Shown: piece by piece, positions 3,999 to 32,367 of the stretch | Numbering within the stretch: position 1 is the first letter of the stretch | How the letters are laid out: each line of letters begins with the position of its first letter | Virus record (IMG/VR): IMGVR_UViG_3300028175_000008 | Coordinates: 1 to 40,039 of that record | Strand: one strand, 5' to 3' | Origin: a virus | DNA: 40,039 bases | Notes under the pieces: generated by a model | The model's input: the letters and a program-made list of their open reading frames with translations, nothing else | What the model was told of the DNA's origin: nothing | Database searches by the model: none | Program-made: the position numbers and the translations under genes

Positions 3999-4019
3999 GA
4001 AAATAAATTAAAATAACAC

Positions 4020-4048
4020 TTGACTTTGTGGTAAAAATGTCGTATATT
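4020..4048 (+). promoter_or_regulatory. Sigma70-type promoter
   Basis: TTGACT-N17-TATATT; spacer differs from 3568 by 1 nt. Confidence 0.85.
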
Positions 4049-4053
4049 CCAGT

Positions 4054-4299
4054 ATGAATAAAACACAAAAAGAGTTATCCACTAACGGATTAAAACCAAA
4101 GATTGTTAAACTGAATGGTGAAGCGTTATATAAACACCTACAACTCTACTTCGGTAAGTCTCCAAAAGAGGCATTAGAATGTATGATAGAGAATAATCAA
4201 GATATATCTTTTACTAATGGAATGGGTAGAGATAAAGAGAATCATGATTTTGATGAAGCAATGAATGGACTATATAAAGATTATGATGGAGATATTTAA
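4054..4299 (+). CDS. Early hypothetical protein, probably leaderless
   Basis: ATG 5 nt after the -10 hexamer, no SD. Confidence 0.7.
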   Translation: MNKTQKELSTNGLKPKIVKLNGEALYKHLQLYFGKSPKEALECMIENNQDISFTNGMGRDKENHDFDEAMNGLYKDYDGDI

Positions 4300-4303
4300 A
4301 ACA

Positions 4304-4510
4304 ATGAACTTAGAACAAACTAACTTACTCTGTAAGACTATTAATCTATTCGGTGACGGACAACATCCAGTTGCTGAAGCCTCTACAATAGGGCAATTTA
4401 ACCATAAGTATAGTATTGAGTGTATAGATAAGGCTCTTACTTTATCTATGTGTGACCCGGGTGATAAGATTATAATGATGTTAAACGAGATTAAAAATAA
4501 ATTAAAATAA
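4304..4510 (+). CDS. Early hypothetical protein
   Basis: In-frame ATG 4304 just after the previous stop. Confidence 0.65.
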   Translation: MNLEQTNLLCKTINLFGDGQHPVAEASTIGQFNHKYSIECIDKALTLSMCDPGDKIIMMLNEIKNKLK

Positions 4511-4513
4511 CAC

Positions 4514-4543
4514 TTGACTTGTATAGGTAAAGTGTTGTATATT
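4514..4543 (+). promoter_or_regulatory. Sigma70-type promoter
   Basis: TTGACT-N18-TATATT. Confidence 0.75.
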
Positions 4544-4571
4544 CCAGTATGGATAGAGAGAGAAAATTAAG

Positions 4572-4628
4572 AGATGAGAACTGGTCCCCACTTAGTGGGA
4601 TAGGGTTAAGAACTACTGAATCTCATCT
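4572..4628 (+). ncRNA. Structured RNA motif, permutation 1 (order X-Y)
   Basis: Closing stem AGATGAGA/TCTCATCT, inner CCCAC-TTA-GTGGG hairpin; segments shared with 5146-5195 in swapped order. Confidence 0.65.
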
Positions 4629-4686
4629 TGATTTAACCCCCGTCAAGCTAAATAATATTTACCTAAACAAATAAAGGAAGTAAACA

Positions 4687-4911
4687 ATGAAGTTTTATAA
4701 ATCAGATGTAATCGAAATACCAAACATTGATACGTTTAAAGGATATATACCAATTGGTTATGATTTAGTCGAATACGAAAAAGGTACGAATCCTGAAATG
4801 GATGGTATGGTACTACATGGTTTTGATGAAATTAATATGGACGAATTTGGTTTTAAAAATCCAGAATATTGTTTTATAAAATACATAATTAATAAAGGAA
4901 CAGAAGGATAA
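4687..4911 (+). CDS. Hypothetical protein
   Basis: AAGGA SD; lies between the two RNA-motif copies. Confidence 0.75.
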   Translation: MKFYKSDVIEIPNIDTFKGYIPIGYDLVEYEKGTNPEMDGMVLHGFDEINMDEFGFKNPEYCFIKYIINKGTEG

Positions 4912-4915
4912 CAAA

Positions 4916-5134
4916 ATGAACAAAACTAAAAAAACACCAATTAAACCCTTCACAGAAGAAGCATTAGCTTTCTTTCAAGAACAAAACGATCAAGAAGAGT
5001 TCATGACAGAACCCACTAATGGTAACTATATAGATTATCTATTAGGAGATATAGGTACTAATGGACATGATGGTACTACTATGGATACTGAGTGGGAAGA
5101 TCTATCTGACGATTCAGATTGGTTTATGGACTAA
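4916..5134 (+). CDS. Hypothetical acidic protein
   Basis: AAGGA SD; followed by RNA-motif copy 2. Confidence 0.7.
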   Translation: MNKTKKTPIKPFTEEALAFFQEQNDQEEFMTEPTNGNYIDYLLGDIGTNGHDGTTMDTEWEDLSDDSDWFMD

Positions 5135-5145
5135 ACAAAATTTAA

Positions 5146-5195
5146 TGGGGTAGGGTTAAGAGCCACTGCATCTCCTGGAGAACTGGACCCCACTT
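5146..5195 (+). ncRNA. Structured RNA motif, permutation 2 (order Y-X)
   Basis: Closing stem TGGGGT/ACCCCA, inner TCTC-CTG-GAGA hairpin. Confidence 0.65.
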
Positions 5196-5211
5196 CTACT
5201 TAACACACCCA

Positions 5212-5252
5212 GAGAGAGAAGGTGGACGAATATTTCGACCACCAACTCTCTC
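5212..5252 (+). other. Strong GC-rich hairpin
   Basis: GAGAGAG/CTCTCTC plus GGTGG/CCACC with an AA/AA internal loop. Confidence 0.7.
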
Positions 5253-5674
5253 AACTCCTTATGCTACACAAACGATAAAAAATAAAGTGCTCATAATAAT
5301 GACAAAATGACAGATAGCTCGGACCCGGCAGAATGACAAACTGATCGGGGGGGTATAGTTTGTCGTGAACGTGAAAAGGTATGACATAACGTCAGAGGCT
5401 CTGATTGGTATGCATATCGGTGTCAATTTTTGAAGCTATAGCTCTTGATACAAATATCCTATCTCTAACGAGATAAATAATAATATACGAGTGTAGGGGA
5501 AAGGAAATAGGTATAATGATTATATGAACTCTTATGAACGACATAAAACTCCCTATATTCGGTTGAATATTATGTGCGAAGTTTTTGTTGTTTTGAGAAT
5601 TATGGATATAGTTATTATTAAGTTGAGTGTTGAATAGCAACATTCTAAGTTATAAACCAAATAAGGAGCTCATC

Positions 5675-5899
5675 ATGAGTAAACCAAAAGAAGCATCATT
5701 TCTTACCTACGAAGAGGCAGCTAAAGTTATCGGAATCGATCCAAAGTCAATTTCAGGATTTGCTAAGAAGCACAATGTATCTCGTGGTTCTTTAGTTATT
5801 GGTGGTAGAAATCGCCGAGTAGTATCGGAAAGTGATTTCATGTCAATAGTAGAGATGAAGAACTACAATCGTGAGAATGATACTGTAGTCTGGGACTAA
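5675..5899 (+). CDS. Excisionase/MerR-like helix-turn-helix DNA-binding protein
   Basis: AAGGAG SD before ATG 5675; FLTYEEAAKVIGIDPKSI pattern. Confidence 0.7.
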   Translation: MSKPKEASFLTYEEAAKVIGIDPKSISGFAKKHNVSRGSLVIGGRNRRVVSESDFMSIVEMKNYNRENDTVVWD

Positions 5900-5911
5900 A
5901 ACCCAACGGGA

Positions 5912-5951
5912 GTGTTGAGTGGGGTTTATCCCCACTTGACACCACTTTTTT
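5912..5951 (+). terminator. Intrinsic terminator
   Basis: 13-bp stem GTGTTGAGTGGGG/CCCCACTTGACAC followed by a T-tract. Confidence 0.75.
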
Positions 5952-6028
5952 GTGTCGTTTCATAAAAAACGTTATACTTATATAAAAGAGAAAGGTTATA
6001 TTAGGCCGTTAGGCCTTTCACCCACACT

Positions 6029-9221: not shown

Positions 9222-9292
9222 TCACCCATGATGAAATGGTATCATGTCTGATTGTTAATCAGATCTTCCTGGTTCGAATCCAGGTGGGTGAG
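9222..9292 (+). tRNA. tRNA-Asn(GTT)
   Basis: Full cloverleaf; anticodon stem TCTGA/TCAGA; G73. Confidence 0.92.
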
Positions 9293-9297
9293 CAAAT

Positions 9298-9369
9298 ATC
9301 TCTATGGTGTAATTGGTAGCATTACGGATTCCAAATCCGTTAGTCTGAGTTCGAGTCTTAGTGGAGATG
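9298..9369 (+). tRNA. tRNA-Trp(CCA)
   Basis: Cloverleaf; ACGGA-TTCCAAA-TCCGT. Confidence 0.92.
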
Positions 9370-9377
9370 CAATATAT

Positions 9378-9448
9378 GGGCTTGTGGTGAAATGGTATCA
9401 CATGAGATTTTGAATCTCATATTATCGGTTCAACTCCGATCAGGCCTT
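9378..9448 (+). tRNA. tRNA-Gln(TTG)
   Basis: Cloverleaf; TGAGA-TTTTGAA-TCTCA. Confidence 0.88.
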
Positions 9449-9471
9449 CTAAAAGTTTTTTAAAATAACAC

Positions 9472-9500
9472 TTGACTTTATGAATTATTGTTTGTATATT
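9472..9500 (+). promoter_or_regulatory. Sigma70-type promoter
   Basis: TTGACT-N17-TATATT. Confidence 0.85.
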
Positions 9501-9531
9501 TAGGTGTTAATTGAAATGATGAGATAAGAAA

Positions 9532-9639
9532 ATGAAAGATAAGAGAACTAATAAAAATTACAGCCTAACTAAAGAGTTTAACAAAGCAATTAACTCCAGT
9601 TGGTATAAGAAAATAATGAAACGACTAAAGTTCGTTTGA
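9532..9639 (+). CDS. 35-aa microprotein, paralog of 2801-2959
   Basis: MKDKRTNKNYSLTKEFNKAINSSWYKKIMKRLKFV. Confidence 0.65.
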   Translation: MKDKRTNKNYSLTKEFNKAINSSWYKKIMKRLKFV

Positions 9640-9673
9640 TTAAAAGTTTTTTGACAATTTGTTTACCATAAAT

Positions 9674-9745
9674 GGCCCGGTCGTCTAATGGATAGGACAC
9701 TGGACTTTCACTCCAGGAACCGGAGGTCAGTACTCCGTCGGGCTA
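9674..9745 (+). tRNA. tRNA-Glu(TTC), atypical T-loop
   Basis: Cloverleaf; CTGGA-CTTTCAC-TCCAG; T-loop GTCAGTA. Confidence 0.82.
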
Positions 9746-9832
9746 CAATAAAATATTATGGAGAGTAAAATACTTGAACGAAAAACTCGTTCTCCTTATA
9801 TTTATTATAGAAGATAATATAGGAGAATTGAT

Positions 9833-10408
9833 GTGTATAAATGTAAAGTAAAAAACTGTGGATATGAAACTGAAAGTCATCCACAAATAGCTAATCATTC
9901 TAAATGGGTTCATAAGAAAGATGAGCAATATACGGTATGTTCGTATTGTGATAAAAAATACCAAAAGGCAAATTTGGGGCCACATGAAAAACGATGTATG
10001 TATAATCCAGAAAATTATACTGAATGTAAAGAATGTGATACTCACATAGAAAAACACCTTACATTCTGTAATTCAAGTTGTTCAGCGAAGTATAATAACA
10101 GAGTTGGTAAGACTGGATATAGAAGGATGATAAATGATAATAATGGTATTCATCCTAATAAGATTGGAGTAAACCCACATTATAGGGAAATGTGTTTTGA
10201 GAACTATGAACCTGAATGTGTAATATGTGGATGGGATATTTCGGTTGAAGTTCACCATGTAGATAATAATCATGATAATGATGAACCAAAAAACTTAATA
10301 CCACTGTGTTCTAATCATCACATAATGACACGAATGAATAAGCATAAAGAATTGATAAATGAAAAAATTAATGAAATAGTAAAAGAAAAATATGGGGCTA
10401 TGGTATAA
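9833..10408 (+). CDS. Zn-ribbon plus HNH endonuclease (putative homing endonuclease)
   Basis: CxxC repeats; CVICG...VEVHHVDNNH.NDEPKNLIPLCSNHH; inserted in the tRNA cluster. Confidence 0.85.
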   Translation: MYKCKVKNCGYETESHPQIANHSKWVHKKDEQYTVCSYCDKKYQKANLGPHEKRCMYNPENYTECKECDTHIEKHLTFCNSSCSAKYNNRVGKTGYRRMINDNNGIHPNKIGVNPHYREMCFENYEPECVICGWDISVEVHHVDNNHDNDEPKNLIPLCSNHHIMTRMNKHKELINEKINEIVKEKYGAMV

Positions 10409-10464
10409 AGCGATTACACCGCATTTGCACTGCGGAAATTAGGGTTGGATTCCCTATAGCTCCA
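10394..10464 (+). tRNA. tRNA-Ala(TGC)
   Basis: GGGGCTA/TAGCTCC with G3:U70; T-loop TTGGATT; overlaps the HNH stop. Confidence 0.85.
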
Positions 10465-10472
10465 CACCATAT

Positions 10473-10546
10473 GTACAGGTGGCAGAGTGGTTTAATGCGG
10501 TGGATTGCAAATCCATTATTCATCGGTTCGAATCCGATCCTGTACT
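10473..10546 (+). tRNA. tRNA-Cys(GCA)
   Basis: Cloverleaf; U73. Confidence 0.93.
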
Positions 10547-10551
10547 CAACA

Positions 10552-10622
10552 GGGGAATTAGTTCATCGGTAGAATGATTGGCTTACATCCAATAGAGAAT
10601 GGTTCGATTCCATTATTCCCTA
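10552..10622 (+). tRNA. tRNA-Val(TAC)
   Basis: ATTGG-CTTACAT-CCAAT; T-arm AATGG/CCATT. Confidence 0.9.
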
Positions 10623-10630
10623 CACAAAAT

Positions 10631-10702
10631 GCTCTCATAGCTTATCAGGTAAAGCAACTGGTTTGTAACCAGAAGAGCGGGGTTCGATTCCTCGTGAGAG
10701 CT
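10631..10702 (+). tRNA. tRNA-Thr(TGT)
   Basis: GCTCTCA/TGAGAGC; loop TTTGTAA. Confidence 0.9.
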
Positions 10703-10712
10703 CAAACAATAT

Positions 10713-10784
10713 ACTCTCGTGGTGAAACGGATATCATATTTGGCTACGAACCAAAAGTTGGGGGCTCGATTCCTCCCGAGAGTA
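10713..10784 (+). tRNA. tRNA-Arg(ACG)
   Basis: ACTCTCG/CGAGAGT; loop CTACGAA; T-loop CTCGATT. Confidence 0.88.
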
Positions 10785-10787
10785 CAG

Positions 10788-10867
10788 TATAAATAGAAAC
10801 GGTAGAAGTCCGTTATAAAGACTTTGAGTTAATTCCTCAGACGAAAGATTGACGCTCTCTATTTATA
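10788..10867 (+). ncRNA. Unassigned structured element in the tRNA cluster
   Basis: 10-bp closing stem TATAAATAGA/TCTATTTATA enclosing AACGG/CCGTT and TTTGAG/CTCAGA hairpins. Confidence 0.4.
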
Positions 10868-10876
10868 TCATTTTTT

Positions 10877-10948
10877 ACTCCCGTAGTGTAAAGGAGAACA
10901 CAGTAGTTTCCTAAACTACAAATGATGGCTCGATTCCATCCGGGAGTA
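10877..10948 (+). tRNA. tRNA-Arg(CCT)
   Basis: ACTCCCG/CGGGAGT; loop TTCCTAA; T-loop CTCGATT. Confidence 0.88.
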
Positions 10949-10953
10949 CAATT

Positions 10954-11025
10954 GGACCCATAGGTTAACTGGTAAACCAGATGGCTTTTAACCATCTGTT
11001 CCCGATTCGAGTTCGGGTGGGTCCA
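10954..11025 (+). tRNA. tRNA-Lys(TTT)
   Basis: GGACCCA/TGGGTCC; GATGG-CTTTTAA-CCATC. Confidence 0.92.
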
Positions 11026-11026
11026 C

Positions 11027-11170
11027 ATGAGTATAAAATATGAACCGACCTTTGGTGAGTATGTAGTAATACGGATGAAGGAAGAAAATATATCTTGGAA
11101 AGATTTAGATGAAGATACTATTGACTTTTTTCATACTCAATGGTTGATTGACAGAAAGAGGGTCCCGTAG
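11027..11170 (+). CDS. About 47-aa hypothetical protein between tRNAs
   Basis: ...YEPTFGEYVVIRMKEENISWKDLDEDTIDFFHTQWLIDRKRVP; stop lies inside the Leu tRNA-like gene; start less certain. Confidence 0.5.
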   Translation: MSIKYEPTFGEYVVIRMKEENISWKDLDEDTIDFFHTQWLIDRKRVP

Positions 11171-11235
11171 CCCAATTGGTAGAGGCAATAGACTTAAAAT
11201 CTATACAGGTGTTGGTTCGATTCCAACTACCCGGT
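11161..11235 (+). pseudogene. tRNA-Leu(TAA) with a non-pairing acceptor stem
   Basis: Intact D, anticodon (ATAGA-CTTAAAA-TCTAT) and T arms, but 5' GGTCCCG faces TACCCGG. Confidence 0.75.
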
Positions 11236-11304
11236 CAATAGTTATATTATATCTGTAATAGATAACTAAACATGATATTTATTACGGATAGAATGGAGTT
11301 AGAA

Positions 11305-11646
11305 ATGGAAATTCATGATAAAAGTTGGGGATATGAAAAGTGGATAGTAAATAAGAAAGAATACTGTGGGAAACTTCTATTCTTTAAAAAGGGAAAACAT
11401 TGTTCCTTTCATTACCATAAAATAAAAGATGAGGTATTTTATTTACAGTCTGGTTCGATAATAGTTAGATATTCAAATGAAGATAACTTAGAAGAATCTA
11501 AAAAAATGATTATGGAACCTGGTGATACATTTCACGTTTCTATTGGATTACGTCATCAAATGCTTGCAATAGAAGATAGTGAATTATTTGAATTTTCAAC
11601 ACAACACTTTGAAGATGATAGCTATAGGATAATTAAAGGTGATTAA
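11305..11646 (+). CDS. Cupin-domain protein (sugar isomerase-like)
   Basis: KSWGYEKW, CSFHYHKIKDE, H.M cupin metal ligands; GGAG SD before 11305. Confidence 0.85.
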   Translation: MEIHDKSWGYEKWIVNKKEYCGKLLFFKKGKHCSFHYHKIKDEVFYLQSGSIIVRYSNEDNLEESKKMIMEPGDTFHVSIGLRHQMLAIEDSELFEFSTQHFEDDSYRIIKGD

Positions 11647-12028
11647 AGTTTGGACTAATGGTTGCTTTGATGTTTTACATCGAGGACATATAGAGTTGTT
11701 TAAATATGCTAAATCACTTGGAGATATTCTTATAGTTGGTATAGATACTGATGCAAAGATTAGAACAGATAAGGGTAAAGGTAGACCAATACACACATTG
11801 GAAGATAGAATAGAAATGTTAAATTCTATAAAGTATATTGACGAAGTTTTACAGTTCAATACAACTAACGAATTACGAAATTTAGTTAGAGTTACATTAC
11901 CAGATATAATGGTAGTTGGTTCGGATTGGAAAAACGGTCAAGTGATTGGTAGAGAATTTACAAAGGAATTAAAATTTTTTGATAGGGTGGGTGATTATTC
12001 AACCACTAAAATAATGGAAGCGTGGTAG
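11639..12028 (+). CDS. Cytidylyltransferase-like protein (HldE/RfaE domain II type)
   Basis: NGCFDVLHRGH HIGH motif; GIDTD, VVGSDW, YSTT. Confidence 0.9.
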   Translation: MIKVWTNGCFDVLHRGHIELFKYAKSLGDILIVGIDTDAKIRTDKGKGRPIHTLEDRIEMLNSIKYIDEVLQFNTTNELRNLVRVTLPDIMVVGSDWKNGQVIGREFTKELKFFDRVGDYSTTKIMEAW

Positions 12029-12102
12029 AGTGGTTGATTGTACATCCCCGCTAAGGATGCTTACCTTAATAGGTAACGGAGGTTCGAATCCAACATCTTC
12101 CG
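12016..12102 (+). tRNA. tRNA-Ser(GCT), degenerate or chimeric
   Basis: Perfect anticodon stem and variable arm; T-stem GGAGG/CCAAC 3 of 5 pairs; acceptor 5 of 7; C33. Confidence 0.65.
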
Positions 12103-12110
12103 CAATATAT

Positions 12111-12196
12111 GGAGAGATCCACTGAATGGTCGGCAACTGGGTTTGAACCCCAGGGTGAATGAAAGTTTGGGGGTTCGATTCCTCATCTCTCCTCCA
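12111..12196 (+). tRNA. tRNA-Ser(TGA)
   Basis: GGAGAGA/TCTCTCC, encoded CCA, long variable region, weak D-stem. Confidence 0.78.
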
Positions 12197-12199
12197 ATT

Positions 12200-12275
12200 G
12201 CTCTCGTGGTGAAACAGGATATCACAAATCGTTTCTACCGATTTATTGAGGGTTCGAGTCCTTCCGAGAGTACCA
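12200..12275 (+). tRNA. tRNA-Arg(TCT)
   Basis: Cloverleaf with encoded CCA; AATCG-TTTCTAC-CGATT. Confidence 0.92.
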
Positions 12276-13701: not shown

Positions 13702-13786
13702 TATCTCATATATATTCTATTTATTATAGAAGTAAATAAAGGTTATGACTAAACATTTTCCTTTAACCAACCAGGAGATATTCACT

Positions 13787-14620
13787 ATGAGTAAATCTAA
13801 AGCAGTAAAAAAAGTTGTTACTACTACACAAGTTAAAGTAAATCAAGAATGTAAAAATAAACGACAAGTCCTGTCACAATTAAAACGGATTAAATGGGAT
13901 ATAGAGTTCCAAACTGAAAATCAAGAAATATTCTATAACACTATAGATAAGAATGATATTTCATTTTGTGCAGGTCCTGCTGGATGTGGTAAGACTTATA
14001 TCGCAGTATATTATGCATTACAACAACTTGCTACTTCTAAAAAATATGATGGAATTATTATTACAAAACCATTAGTAGAAGTTGAGGGTGAGAAGCTTGG
14101 ATACTTACCAGGTAACGTAGAAGAAAAGACAGAACCATTTATGATGTCTATCTACTACAATATGGAACAGATTATAGGTAGAGATAGATTGAAGATGTTA
14201 AGAGATACGGGTGTGATTACAGTAGTTCCATTAGCTTATATGCGTGGACTTACTTTAACTAATAGAATGGTATTATTAGATGAAGCACAGAACTCAACTC
14301 CTTTACAGATTAAAACATTTCTAACTCGCATTGGTAAAGGTAGTAAATTTATCATTAGTGGAGATTTACAACAATCAGATGTTAAACATAAAAATGGTAA
14401 TGGGTTAGAAGATGCAATTAGAAGATTAACTGGGTTACCACATTTAGGATTTTCACAATTTACATTAGCAGACATAGTGAGACATCCGGTAGTTGCTGGA
14501 ATATTAGAACGATATAATAAAGAATATGATATTGCGGATTTACCTGCAGAAGCCACATTATCAGCTTGGTTAGAACATCCAAAATATGATTACTCACGAA
14601 TAACAAACAGATGGGGTTAA
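13787..14620 (+). CDS. phoH: PhoH-like ATPase
   Basis: GPAGCGKT, LGYLPG, YMRGLTL, LDEAQN, TRIG..SK, GDLQQSD, DIVRH; CAGGAG SD before 13787. Confidence 0.95.
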   Translation: MSKSKAVKKVVTTTQVKVNQECKNKRQVLSQLKRIKWDIEFQTENQEIFYNTIDKNDISFCAGPAGCGKTYIAVYYALQQLATSKKYDGIIITKPLVEVEGEKLGYLPGNVEEKTEPFMMSIYYNMEQIIGRDRLKMLRDTGVITVVPLAYMRGLTLTNRMVLLDEAQNSTPLQIKTFLTRIGKGSKFIISGDLQQSDVKHKNGNGLEDAIRRLTGLPHLGFSQFTLADIVRHPVVAGILERYNKEYDIADLPAEATLSAWLEHPKYDYSRITNRWG

Positions 14621-20228: not shown

Positions 20229-20276
20229 CAAGTAACAATGAGAGATAATGTAACTAACTTAAAAGGAGTCATTCAA

Positions 20277-21440
20277 ATGACAAATACAGTTGTAAAAATA
20301 GAAATGTCGGGTAACCGATTTAACGCTTGGGATATCGATGGTAATAAACTTACCTCGGAAATCTCAACTTCCACTCGTAGAGGAGCGTTTGAAGCCGGAA
20401 TGGCATTAGAGAAACGTGAAGGTAAAGGTGGGAGAACTTATTGGTGGAAAGTTCCAATGAGTAAATTTGACGAAGCTTCTGTTCCAGTAATGGATATGAG
20501 TTCTGTTGATATTCCAAAAGAACATTCAGAAATGTTGAACTTCATTCATAGTTCTTTTAAACTTAAACCTAATGGTTTGGTGATGAAAGAATTGAAGTGG
20601 AAATATCTTGTCCGTTCCGCAGTCCGTGGAAAAAACATTTTAATGACTGGTTCGTCCGGATGTGGTAAAACTATGGCAGCTAAATCGTTGGTAAACGCTT
20701 TAGACCGTCCTGACTTTTACTTTAATCTTGGAGCGACACAGGATCCTCGTTCAACTTTGATTGGTAATACCCACTTTGATAAAAAGAAGGGAACTTACTT
20801 TTCAGAATCACATTTCGTTTCCGCGATAAAAACTCCAAACGCAGTTATTCTGTTGGATGAATTATCAAGAGCTCACCCAGACGCTTGGAATATTTTAATG
20901 ACAGTTCTTGATGAAGGTCAAAGATATCTTCGGTTGGATGAAGCCGATGGAACTGAAACAGTTTCAGTCGCAGAAGGAGTTACATTCGTCGCGACCGCTA
21001 ACATTGGTAATGAATACACTTCTACTCGTGTTATGGATAAAGCCTTAATGGACAGATTCACCATCGTAGAAATGGATGTATTGAATAATGAAGAAGAATT
21101 GGGATTACTATCCTATATGTTTCCTCATGTAGATAATGGATTACTGAAATCAGTTTCGGAAATTGCACATTCAACTCGTGTTGAATCACGAAATGAAACC
21201 GGTAGAGTTTCAAGTGGAATTTCAACCAGAACTTCTGTTGAAATGGCTGGATTACTCTATGATGGATTTGGATTAGATGAAGCAGCTGAAGTTACTGTCT
21301 ATCCACAATACTCTAATGATGGTGGTATGGAATCAGAACGAACTTACGTGAAACAGTTAATACAGAAGTTTGTTACTGATGGTAGTTCTGATGACTTGTT
21401 TAATGAAAGTGAAATCGAAAACTCAGGAGATATTAGTTAG
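20277..21440 (+). CDS. MoxR/CobS-type AAA+ ATPase
   Basis: GSSGCGKT Walker A, LLDELSR Walker B, ATANIG sensor, ALMDRF Arg finger; AAGGAG SD before 20277. Confidence 0.9.
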   Translation: MTNTVVKIEMSGNRFNAWDIDGNKLTSEISTSTRRGAFEAGMALEKREGKGGRTYWWKVPMSKFDEASVPVMDMSSVDIPKEHSEMLNFIHSSFKLKPNGLVMKELKWKYLVRSAVRGKNILMTGSSGCGKTMAAKSLVNALDRPDFYFNLGATQDPRSTLIGNTHFDKKKGTYFSESHFVSAIKTPNAVILLDELSRAHPDAWNILMTVLDEGQRYLRLDEADGTETVSVAEGVTFVATANIGNEYTSTRVMDKALMDRFTIVEMDVLNNEEELGLLSYMFPHVDNGLLKSVSEIAHSTRVESRNETGRVSSGISTRTSVEMAGLLYDGFGLDEAAEVTVYPQYSNDGGMESERTYVKQLIQKFVTDGSSDDLFNESEIENSGDIS

Positions 21441-23624: not shown

Positions 23625-24797
23625 ATGAAAAAATATAAAGACATATCAGAAATAGAAGAAGGTTGGGGTGACTTTAAAGATGCTGTAAGTGGTGGTCAGA
23701 CTCAAGCAGATTGGGTAGATCCAAACGGTAAATTGTATAAAGTTAAAGACACTCATATGGAGTTTGTAGCGAGACACCCAAAGTTATTTAAAACTGAAAT
23801 TGGAACTTTAAAACGAATCTTTGATAAACATAGTGAGGTATTTCCGAAACAAGAGAATAAAGCTCGCATAGAAATCCTAACCAAGATAGTAAAAAGAGGT
23901 TGGATACGAACCCGATACAGACCAAGAGAAGGTGCGTGGACATTGGAAACTTACAAGTGGGGAACTCGTGAAATTAAAGCAGCTCGTAAGTGGGCAAAGG
24001 TAAAGTCCGGTGGTAATACCCAATTTAGAATAAACTTTGTATCAACATCTAAACAAAAATTGATAGGACATTCATTTAGTATAGATTTGATAAAGAGTAA
24101 AGGTAATGATGTATTTGAAGCATGGATGAAAGAAATAATGGAAATCACAGAAAACGTTAATTTACAAGAAAGTTCTTTAAGTAGAATTTGGAAGCACGCC
24201 CAACTTCACCAAACTGGAACCATAACTGCATTTAGATATGCTCGTGATTGTGGTGAAGGTACGGTGTATACGAAAGGTGAAAATAAAGCAAGAAATAAAA
24301 AGTTGGAATCAAAATTATTAAGTAAGGGGTATGGTATTACTAAAATACAGGGAATTTATATTGAGAATTATAAATCTAATAATGAGATTGAAGTTAAAGA
24401 AGAATCATTTTTTGTGGTGGATTTAAAAGATAATAAAAAACTATTATTGAATTTAAAAAAATTAGGTAGAGAATTTGATCAAGATAGTATTTGCTTTGGA
24501 TTACATGGTGGCAAAAGATATACTGTATTTGGAACTAATGATTGTCCAAATGCATATCCTGGAAAAGGTAAAAATATAAAACTAGGAGATGCTATTTTTG
24601 GAAACAGTGGTAAATTTATGTCGAAAGTAAACGGTAGACCGTTTATATTTAATGGATCAGTTAAAACTAAATTACCAGAAATGATAACCTATGAATCATT
24701 ATCTATACAGTCAAAAGAAGTAGTAGATAAAATATCAAATACTACTTGGGAAAGTTTTTATGTATCCAATAAGGATATTTTAGAAAATGAAAAATAA
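23625..24797 (+). CDS. Two-domain hypothetical phage protein
   Basis: 390-aa ORF; C-terminal ESSLSRIW...ITAFR...EESFFV...FDQDSI. Confidence 0.8.
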   Translation: MKKYKDISEIEEGWGDFKDAVSGGQTQADWVDPNGKLYKVKDTHMEFVARHPKLFKTEIGTLKRIFDKHSEVFPKQENKARIEILTKIVKRGWIRTRYRPREGAWTLETYKWGTREIKAARKWAKVKSGGNTQFRINFVSTSKQKLIGHSFSIDLIKSKGNDVFEAWMKEIMEITENVNLQESSLSRIWKHAQLHQTGTITAFRYARDCGEGTVYTKGENKARNKKLESKLLSKGYGITKIQGIYIENYKSNNEIEVKEESFFVVDLKDNKKLLLNLKKLGREFDQDSICFGLHGGKRYTVFGTNDCPNAYPGKGKNIKLGDAIFGNSGKFMSKVNGRPFIFNGSVKTKLPEMITYESLSIQSKEVVDKISNTTWESFYVSNKDILENEK

Positions 24798-30735: not shown

Positions 30736-32367
30736 ATGGCTAAAGAAATAAAATACAATGCTCAATCCCACTCAGCTTTGATGTCTGGTGTAGACCAACT
30801 TGCAAACGCGGTTAAGGTTACATTAGGTCCAAAGGGTAGGAATGTAGTTATTGAAAAGAAGTTCGGTTCTCCGCTCATAACCAAAGATGGGGTTACAGTA
30901 GCAAAGGAAATTGAACTTGAAGATAAGTTTGAAAGTGTAGGGGCAGAGTTATTGAAAGAAGTTGCGTCAAGAACATCTGATATAGCTGGTGATGGTACAA
31001 CTACCGCCACGGTTCTCGCACAGGCCATCATAAACGAAGGAGTGAAGAATGTTACAGCGGGTGCAAATCCAATGTCCATTAAACGTGGGATTGATTTTGC
31101 ATCAAGTAAAGTTGTAGAGTCCATCCGTAACGCAGCTAAAGACCTTCCAGATTCAAATCAAATTGCTCAAGTAGCTACAATCTCAGCAAATGATGATAGT
31201 GAGATTGGTGGAAAGATTGCTGAGGCAATGGAAAAAGTTGGTAAAGACGGTGTTATTACTGTAGAAGAAAGTAAGACAGCTGAAACATATTTGGATTTCG
31301 TAGAAGGAATGCAATTTGATCGTGGTTATCTTTCACCATACTTCGTAACCGATTCTGATAATATGGAAGCAGTTCTTGAAGATCCATATATCTTATTACA
31401 TGACAAGAAGATTTCCAATGTGAAAGACGTTCTACCTATTTTGGAGAAAGTAGTTCAGACAGGAAAACCAATCGTCATAGTAGCTGAAGATGTAGATGGT
31501 GAAGCACTCGCGGCACTCGTAGTGAATAAACTCCGTGGAACATTCAAAGTTCTTGCAGTGAAGGCACCAGGATTTGGAGACAGACGTAAATCAATGTTAG
31601 AAGATATTGCGACACTCACCGGAGCAACCGTAATTTCTGAAGAAGCTGGTCATAAATTAGAGAACACAACTCTTGATTTTATGGGAACCTGTTCACGTGT
31701 TGTATCCGACAAAGACAATACAACCGTCGTTGGTGGTAGTGGTGATGTAGATACAATTAAATCTCGTATTAATGAAATCAAAGTTCAGATTGAAAAATCC
31801 ACTTCCGATTATGATATTGAGAAGTTACAAGAGCGACTTGCTAAACTAAGTGGTGGAGTTGCAGTACTAAATGTTGGAGCACCAACTGAAGTTGAAATGA
31901 AAGAGAAGAAAGCTCGTGTGGAAGATGCGTTACACGCAACCCGAGCAGCAGTTGAAGAAGGTATCGTCGCTGGTGGTGGTGTTACTCTACTTCGTGCTAT
32001 TTCAGCTCTTGACGATGTATCAGTAGATGATGAACAAATGGTTGGAGTGAATATCATGAGAAAAGCACTTCAAGCACCACTTCGTCAAATCTGTGAAAAT
32101 GCTGGTGAAGAATCTTCCGTCGTAGCACGTGAAGTTCTTAATAGTAAAAATGGAACTGGGTTTGATGCTCGTAGTGGAGAATATGTAGATATGTTCAAGG
32201 CTGGCATTATTGATCCAGCTAAGGTTACACGTGTAGCAGTAGAGAACGCAAGTTCAATCGCTGGTATGTTACTCACAACGGAGGCCGTTATTACGGAAAT
32301 TCCAAGTGACGACACATCACCTATGATGCCACCAGGCGGAATGGGTGGAATGCCAGGCATGATGTAA
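30736..32367 (+). CDS. groEL: Chaperonin GroEL
   Basis: [36 protein letters not shown] tail. Confidence 0.98.

Follow-up and report, generated by a model that had tools for sequence, protein, structure and literature searches.

A circularly permuted three-way-junction RNA family of marine phages, found in two wirings and in arrays

Two segments of a marine phage genome, located at 4571-4629 and 5146-5192 of the window analysed here (the whole stretch of 40,039 nt from IMG/VR record IMGVR_UViG_3300028175_000008), are two circularly permuted copies of one RNA fold, and both belong to an RNA family of marine phages that is absent from RNA catalogues. The family occurs naturally in two wirings, one with its ends in helix P1 (copy 1 of the window) and the other with its ends in helix P2 (copy 2), and its members are found singly, in tandem or nested. 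We propose, tentatively and with a probability of about 0.4, that the conserved junction of this fold is a self-contained, wiring-independent docking site (aptamer) for one conserved partner that is not encoded alongside it. The window derives from a novel, AT-rich marine phage that has many near-consensus early promoters and almost no similarity to GenBank phages; its region 4000-6000 gave no nucleotide match in GenBank phages, and the protein matches were remote only. The features of the locus are as follows.

4514-4543, plus strand: predicted early sigma-70-type promoter, TTGACT, 18-nt spacer, TATATT (10 of 12 consensus matches)
4571-4629, plus strand: copy 1, type A (P1-closed), from the match of model R1 and sequence reading
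4571-4579 with 4621-4629, plus strand: P1 of copy 1
4580 and 4581-4584, plus strand: junction base and CUGG of copy 1
4585-4600, plus strand: P2 hairpin of copy 1, with one bulged C
4601-4603 and 4604-4614, plus strand: U-A-G and P3 hairpin of copy 1
4615, 4616-4618 and 4619-4620, plus strand: A, CUG and two variable bases of copy 1
4630-4667, plus strand: trailing leader, the 38-nt tail of copy 1, which moves with copy 1 as a module in relatives
4687-4911, plus strand: ORF1, 74 aa, without a known family (no PHROG match), a separate shuffling unit
4916-5134, plus strand: ORF2, 72 aa, acidic with a Trp-rich C-terminus, without a known family (no PHROG match)
5146-5192, plus strand: copy 2, type B (P2-closed), from the match of model R2
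5146-5151 with 5187-5192, plus strand: P2 of copy 2
5151-5153 and 5154-5164, plus strand: U-A-G and P3 hairpin of copy 2
5165, 5166-5168 and 5169-5170, plus strand: A, CUG and variable bases of copy 2
5171-5181, 5182 and 5183-5186, plus strand: P1 hairpin, junction base and CUGG of copy 2
5196-5620, plus strand: conserved non-coding region linked to copy 2 in relatives (fold z -4.8)

The first-pass annotation of this DNA had described two segments, X and Y, that recur in exchanged order on either side of two genes. Re-reading of the sequence agrees with this description: X is identical at 17 of 18 positions (4576-4593 versus 5178-5195) and Y at 24 of 28 (4597-4624 versus 5147-5174), with copy 1 reading X-AGT-Y and copy 2 reading Y-CTG-X. 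The 40-kb window contains exactly two occurrences of each segment, compared with 0.01 (X) and 0.00 (Y) expected from dinucleotide shuffles. The exchange of stems that had been noticed also holds, the capped hairpin of one copy being the closing stem of the other (4571-4579/4621-4629 in copy 1 and 5146-5150/5188-5192 in copy 2). Two of the four substitutions in Y are pairing-neutral, as had been stated, and both are located in hairpin P3 (4612/5162, U-A versus U.G; 4614/5164, G.U versus G-C); the third (4600/5150) affects the last base of P2 and the fourth (4619/5169) a variable junction base. The positions given relative to the promoter and the genes were likewise correct, with copy 1 lying 28 nt downstream of TTGACT-18-TATATT and copy 2 starting 12 nt past the end of ORF2, the last stop of that unit. 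The single-sequence folding energies of the copies are unexceptional (z from -1.2 to +0.7); therefore, the case for the motif rests on its relatives and not on thermodynamics.

Covariance models were built from foreign members only (R1 from 15 type A and R2 from 18 type B sequences), with the window sequences excluded from both. R1 gave a full-length match to copy 1 at 4575-4625 (35.6 bits, E 5.6e-11) and R2 a full-length match to copy 2 at 5145-5193 (46 bits, E 3.5e-10), and the next-best matches in the window had E-values of >0.5 (R1) and >1 (R2). Model scores in the fetched loci were bimodal, with true members at 45 bits or more and all others at 30 bits or less. A chance rearranged duplication, which had been named as the reading to adopt if cleavage, covariation and further homologs were all lacking, is ruled out by the many homologs, by their strong covariation and by the detection of both copies with these window-free models.

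A search of IMG/VR for the 18-nt centre of Y returned 60 viral loci, 55 of which carry the full motif, with the CUGG element and two helices of locus-specific sequence flanking the Y centre in either of two orders. Scanning of metagenomes with the core pattern yielded at least 120 loci, mostly in marine records and many from TARA and other ocean samples; 80 of these provided 48 type A and 37 type B matches. Overall, at least 64 distinct type A (P1-closed) and at least 55 distinct type B (P2-closed) sequences, at least 119 in total, were collected from marine viral and metagenome contigs, and the apparent conservation of their core is inflated because most members were found via the exact 18-nt core. 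A count over 596 Gb of bacterial and archaeal genomes gave eight occurrences of the core, and the four complete motifs among these are all on marine MAG contigs. Segment X used alone as a pattern hit 35 viral loci, none of which has Y nearby, and these were discarded as chance matches.

No Rfam 15 family matched the motif at E-values up to 10, either in 1.3 kb of sequence surrounding the copies or in 7.4 kb from canonical members, and the hits around the copies in this range were only miRNA/snoRNA noise off the motif. The only Rfam matches in the window at the gathering threshold are 13 tRNAs. In 11 motif loci, Rfam matches were confined to tRNA, phage tmRNA and manA. Literature searches on sequence strings, ribozymes and permutation, and phage structured RNAs revealed no description of the motif. 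We therefore treat it as a new RNA family, and the earlier suggestion of a new class of structured RNA is borne out by the two wirings, the lack of an Rfam match and the covariation seen in many homologs. Similarities to other RNAs, namely an 8-mer of 16S rRNA, the D-arm of tRNA, the handles of CRISPR repeats, the L11-binding region and the Ro60 site of Y RNAs, were rejected as short or in conflict with the variable positions.

The fold is a three-way junction of about 45 nt. In type A, the order of strands is P1, one variable base, CUGG, P2, U-A-R, P3, A-CUG, two variable bases and P1'. CUGG can pair through its first three bases with the 3' CUG (C-G, U.U and G-C), forming a 3-bp CUG/CUG helix with a central U.U mismatch, and in four natural CAGG variants the middle U.U is replaced by A-U. 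The variable helix P2 is closed by A-U pairing of the base that follows CUGG with the U of U-A-R, and in most cases P3 consists of a 4-bp stem and a 3-nt loop. With the P3 variants considered, the near-invariant set consists of CUGG, U-A-R and A-CUG, i.e. about a dozen bases around a tight junction.

In the model-based alignments, which were fitted to our own models and are thus biased towards the proposed structure, approximately 90% of cells are paired. Double-sided changes were found in five of five P1 pairs and three of four P2 pairs in type A, and in four of four P1 pairs and five of seven P2 pairs in type B. The observed covariation score was reached by none of 500 shuffles, and in slid controls pairing fell from approximately 90% to 20-60%, a slide of one column being enough to roughly halve it. 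The sequence of P3 was fixed by the search pattern in most members but is free to vary in array copies and uvsX-linked members, in which G-C is exchanged for A-U and U-A and in which the whole helix has been replaced four times, with other loops (L133, L139, L476 and L458). Thus, the covariance-model search that had been suggested for this motif detected compensatory changes in P1, P2 and P3 in many homologs. Two gapped pattern scans for a third, P3-open permutation, both of which assumed the canonical P3, gave only chance matches and the L037 tandem among the matches listed.

A linkage also exists between the base that precedes CUGG and the second position past the 3' CUG, as A/A (66/68), U/U (40/44) or G/(U or C) (6/6). 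In alignments of all members, U as the partner goes with C or U as the first base after CUG, and G as the partner goes with A. This linkage is non-Watson-Crick, and we found no structural explanation for it.

These data bear on the reading of the motif as a DNA-level or selfish element, such as a recombination hot spot or cassette boundary, whose RNA fold would be incidental. The known example is PeSL, a promoter with a simple terminator hairpin that is conserved as DNA and for which shuffling of the early-gene cassettes of T4-type phages is documented (PMC2839356, PMC4122927). Like PeSL, the motif marks the borders of small cassettes of early genes, comparison of relatives shows these cassettes reshuffled around it, and a tandem pair automatically contains the permuted order (L037), which provides a simple route to the second wiring. 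Unlike PeSL, however, it has a conserved junction and keeps to one strand, and its stem sequences differ in nearly every copy with pairing kept, so that the compensatory changes in three helices argue for selection on a folded single strand and not on a recombination sequence common to the copies. The bias towards the transcribed strand is strong, with 158 of the 190 ORFs of at least 150 aa within 3 kb (83%) co-oriented with the motif, and P3 contains an invariant U.G pair, in place of which the opposite strand would have C.A. On account of this covariation and strand bias, we rank the DNA-level reading last and consider it very improbable.

Comparison with relatives of the window locus further showed how the two copies are deployed. 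The promoter at 4514-4543 belongs to a promoter family repeated in the window (family D8 copy 4495-4524) and is predicted from its sequence to drive copy 1 together with the downstream ORFs. In L517, positions 4313-4667 of the window, comprising promoter, copy 1 and tail (87% identity), is fused directly to the ORF2 block from 4904, giving the arrangement promoter, copy 1, ORF2, copy 2, in which the pair brackets a single gene. In L534, the two copies are approximately 1 kb apart with other genes between them, and copy 2 shows a compensatory change from G-C to A-U in P2. ORF2 and a type B copy 2 are present alone in L426, L501, L526 and L506, and wherever ORF2 occurs in relatives, copy 2 comes after it. 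Homologs of ORF1 with 96% amino acid identity stand directly behind a promoter, without the motif, in L096 and L097. Close relatives therefore contain either copy 2 alone or both copies around one to approximately four genes, and we conclude from these varied arrangements that the two copies are independent modules and not the ends of a fixed unit. The proposal of the first-pass annotation that the pair might excise or circularise the two-gene transcript is weakened accordingly: copy 2 stands alone in four relatives, the pair brackets one gene in L517 and other genes in L534, and the closest relative of ORF1 carries no motif.

The locus is also present in assembled contigs of four marine metatranscriptome runs; these contigs bridge copy 1 and, being assembled, cannot show RNA ends. 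Contigs of two studies end at 5178, within the variable P1 loop of copy 2, and 5206-5459 has no contig cover. Because the same runs contain strain differences, namely a common foreign sequence before 5459 and a 4520-to-5149 joint, the simplest reading of the end at 5178 is an assembly branch point.

The region behind copy 2 (5196-5620) is 83-85% conserved in L426, L501 and L526, with long invariant blocks, which exceeds the conservation of the flanking ORFs, and it has no Rfam match. It begins with a strong 17-bp hairpin (5212-5252), and about six TGACA/TGTCA words are found upstream of an HTH-like ORF (5627-5899). This region could be an operator, an origin region or a larger non-coding RNA, and it may lie outside the function of the motif. 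A long-range pairing between copy 2 and this region, obtained with RNAalifold, was without covariation and was not relied on.

Across phages, many type A copies have their 5' end approximately 17-20 nt past a -10 box and their 3' end 20-31 nt ahead of a start codon (19-31 nt for the many start-proximal copies as a whole), type B copies occupy the gap between gp32-like and uvsX/RecA-like genes in T4-like marine phages, and some copies are located approximately 10 nt after a stop codon (copy 2 of the window and L093). No ORF follows for approximately 400 nt behind copy 2 of the window or the copies in L045, L077 and L061. The genes downstream are unrelated to each other; among their products are a UvsX/RecA-like recombinase, a 2OG oxygenase, a DUF932 protein and an HNH/DUF968 protein, and numerous others are orphan ORFs of 70 aa. 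When the ORFs within 3 kb of 130 distinct loci were clustered, no family was present in >12% of the loci; the top cluster near the motif was an artefact, consisting of reading frames that overlap the motif. The motif is sporadically present or absent among close relatives, the model having matched only 6 of 80 close uvsX loci, and a descriptor search found one additional uvsX-locus variant (L139).

The positions close to start codons, together with a junction that is conserved while the stems vary, would suit a small-molecule aptamer, which might serve as a riboswitch tuning early genes or, alone or arrayed, as an RNA sponge for a metabolite or signalling nucleotide. In L043, L071 and L036, the closing helix runs directly into a U-run, so that its folding could complete a terminator, and in the uvsX slot the closing stem of the motif is, in relatives, the stem of a plain terminator-like hairpin. 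Tandem aptamers are also known in riboswitches. However, the genes served are functionally unrelated, the motif is essentially absent from cellular genomes, and the two wirings place different helices beside any expression platform. The flanks contain no consistent U-tract after the closing helix and no conserved terminator, and the core contains no anti-SD; genes of one pathway and a conserved competing expression platform, by which riboswitches are recognised, were thus not seen. This reading therefore appears distinctly unlikely to us. The P3 loop as a mimic of the SD sequence was likewise rejected, because P3 variants lose the SD-like sequence.

The motif also forms arrays. Two or three units follow each other in L037, L458 and L476, and in the nested arrays of L109 and L489 two or three CUGG strands come first, next a hairpin, and finally two or three Y strands; the array units keep their own P3 through compensatory changes. 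In our model, a nested array would be a rod with a P3 hairpin about every 12 layers. To our knowledge, nested arrays of up to three units have not been reported for another RNA family. Two triple-nested arrays, each behind a promoter, are present at 3700-4450 of L489 (minus strand), the second ending approximately 20 nt before a start codon, and double-nested forms occur in L109, L460, L466 and L474. L045 contains two promoter-plus-motif units repeated 111 nt apart. Long, GC-rich and apparently non-coding stretches (250-400 nt) lie behind the motif in L045 (minus strand, after 3570) and L061 (2108-2520); they are possibly further non-coding RNAs, and that of L045 has no Rfam match.

Natural circular permutation of a small RNA has been described for few families (hammerhead, twister, 5S rRNA and group II introns; PMC10085705), and its occurrence in hammerhead and twister is one reason to consider a new class of self-cleaving ribozyme. 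Such a ribozyme would cleave at a fixed site, e.g. beside the variable base 5' of CUGG or 3' of ACUG, leaving 5'-OH and cyclic-phosphate ends; it would trim 5' leaders and separate cistrons of early transcripts, and in arrangements like that of the window a defined RNA segment could be freed and might then be ligated. Like the hammerhead, the motif is built around a small three-way junction in which about a dozen bases are conserved and the stems covary freely; both have natural circular permutations and are frequent in phage DNA, sometimes flanking genes. In addition, it is phage-restricted, sporadic and intergenic, and it alternates with unrelated structured inserts in the gp32-uvsX gap, as ribozyme classes share genomic niches. 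The core strands of the hammerhead (CUGANGA, GAAA and the cleavage-site H) are, however, absent; those of the motif are N-CUGG-N, U-A-R and A-CUG-NN, and its junction strands are only 1, 2 and 1 nt long and adjoin the CUG/CUG helix. Twister (types P1, P3 and P5) resembles the motif in its length of approximately 50 nt, its natural circular permutations and its phage-associated intergenic positions, whereas the motif has neither the double pseudoknot nor the twister consensus bases, and none of the P1, P3 and P5 models matched. The failure to fit the core to the hammerhead and twister consensus sequences, as had been reported for this locus, is thus confirmed, neither family having matched at E-values up to 10.

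With no Rfam family matching even at an E-value of 10, catalysis would require a wholly new class. Triple-nested arrays and gene-less copies are of no obvious use to a cleaver, no P3-open permutation was found among the matches listed (in scans that assumed the canonical P3), and in our judgement orphan RNA motifs seldom prove catalytic. We therefore rank the ribozyme second: it is favoured by the permutation and by the hammerhead-like economy of the core and disfavoured by the nested arrays and the rarity of catalysis among orphan motifs, which makes it a possible but rather unlikely explanation. Tandem, nested and gene-less copies fit a binding module at least as well as catalysis.

Any proposal has to explain a tiny conserved junction, indifference to wiring and neighbours, restriction to phages, early promoter-proximal expression, arrays and gene-less copies. 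We rank the docking module first because arrays and gene-less copies are typical of binding RNAs and because a binding site needs only the folded junction. The partner could be a host protein or machine, or a small ligand. If only the folded junction matters, either wiring would serve, copies could be stacked for avidity, and the module could be inserted into any early transcript. Once docked, it would alter the fate of the RNA, i.e. its translation, stability or read-through, and where no gene follows it may act as an abundant decoy. In the window, copy 1 would be a plug-in leader between the early promoter and ORF1, and copy 2 a separate module fixed behind ORF2. An ordinary metabolite is argued against as the ligand by the finding of only four complete copies in bacterial and archaeal assemblies, all on marine MAG contigs.

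The put RNAs of HK022 show that a phage leader can act through a host machine: they are promoter-proximal, cis-acting antiterminators that bind RNA polymerase and are protein-independent. The motif is similarly a promoter-proximal folded module in phage early transcripts, but put consists of two stem-loops without a junction, is known only from HK022-like phages and is not known to form arrays or permutations, and no resemblance in sequence or structure is evident. Another counterpart is int-alpA (RF02996), which is also a small three-way-junction leader near the +1 position of a promoter and heads unrelated small add-on phage genes. RF02996, however, had no match in the window, in the canonical members or, at E-values up to 1, in any of five whole motif-bearing phage contigs, and no loop-to-RBS complementarity was seen in the motif.

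Further points weigh against the docking proposal. A set of about 12 bases kept across very different phages demands an unusually universal partner, and the linkage of the bases before CUGG and after ACUG is left without an account. Furthermore, permutation of small RNAs is documented mainly for the self-cleaving hammerhead and twister ribozymes (PMC10085705).

The motif adds a well-supported family, which is absent from Rfam and has at least 119 covarying members in two wirings, to the few small RNAs with natural circular permutation. It stands at the very start of early transcripts of abundant ocean phages, before unrelated genes, and whatever its role, it is therefore a device used generally in the early gene expression of phages. 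Catalysis would make it a new ribozyme class; a docking module would point to a host target or ligand exploited by many marine phages; and an aptamer array would be an early phage sponge or decoy for a host factor or signal. Small structured RNA modules of phages are already known as a kind, and the motif would be categorically new if catalysis or an unprecedented partner were shown. With a length of approximately 45 nt, it lends itself to direct testing and could be used as a compact, wiring-tolerant RNA part.

At uvsX loci without the motif, the same closing stem holds either a plain terminator-like hairpin or unrelated structured inserts that are absent from Rfam. One of these inserts, 'alpha', is present within this closing stem in the gp32-uvsX gap at 28 of 80 loci (L115:502-596 and 27 more uvsX loci, e.g. 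L118, L126 and L146). It combines a conserved UUGAAG with a covarying helix, which encloses an A-rich loop with ACCG at its end, and an optional hairpin, and it contains a CCGG element that could form a pseudoknot. No Rfam match was found for 'alpha', which is a second uncatalogued structured RNA of T4-like marine phages. Another insert in this slot, 'beta' (L129, L156 and L159; approximately 90-20 nt before uvsX), contains conserved ACAGAUUGAAG and GCCUAAC elements and also has no Rfam match. In other relatives, the uvsX slot contains only a plain hairpin and a U-run. A hairpin module, AAUAGAGG-AACA-CUCCGU, caps both the P1 extension of the motif (L053/L041; L053:8834-8860) and the optional hairpin of 'alpha' (L188, approximately 545-575), a distribution which suggests, from the sequences, that tip modules are exchanged between unrelated RNAs.

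Very acidic, Trp-rich small proteins with C-termini of the ExxW/DEW type recur beside the motif, on its upstream side in some cases and on its downstream side in others (window 4916-5134, L093:8040-8198, and ORFs downstream in L434, L043 and L038); the ORF that follows the motif in L434 is homologous to one that precedes it in L093. Permuted (alphaproteobacterial-type) tmRNA genes are present in motif-bearing phage contigs, and a manA RNA in one T4-like contig (L086:824-1298, L071:12030-12375 and L053:7028-7221). The window itself contains a cluster of 13 tRNA genes (9222-12275) and also encodes PhoH (13745-14620), a MoxR-like AAA ATPase (20238-21440), a SAM-lyase-like domain (23625-24797) and a GroEL-type chaperonin (30736-32367).
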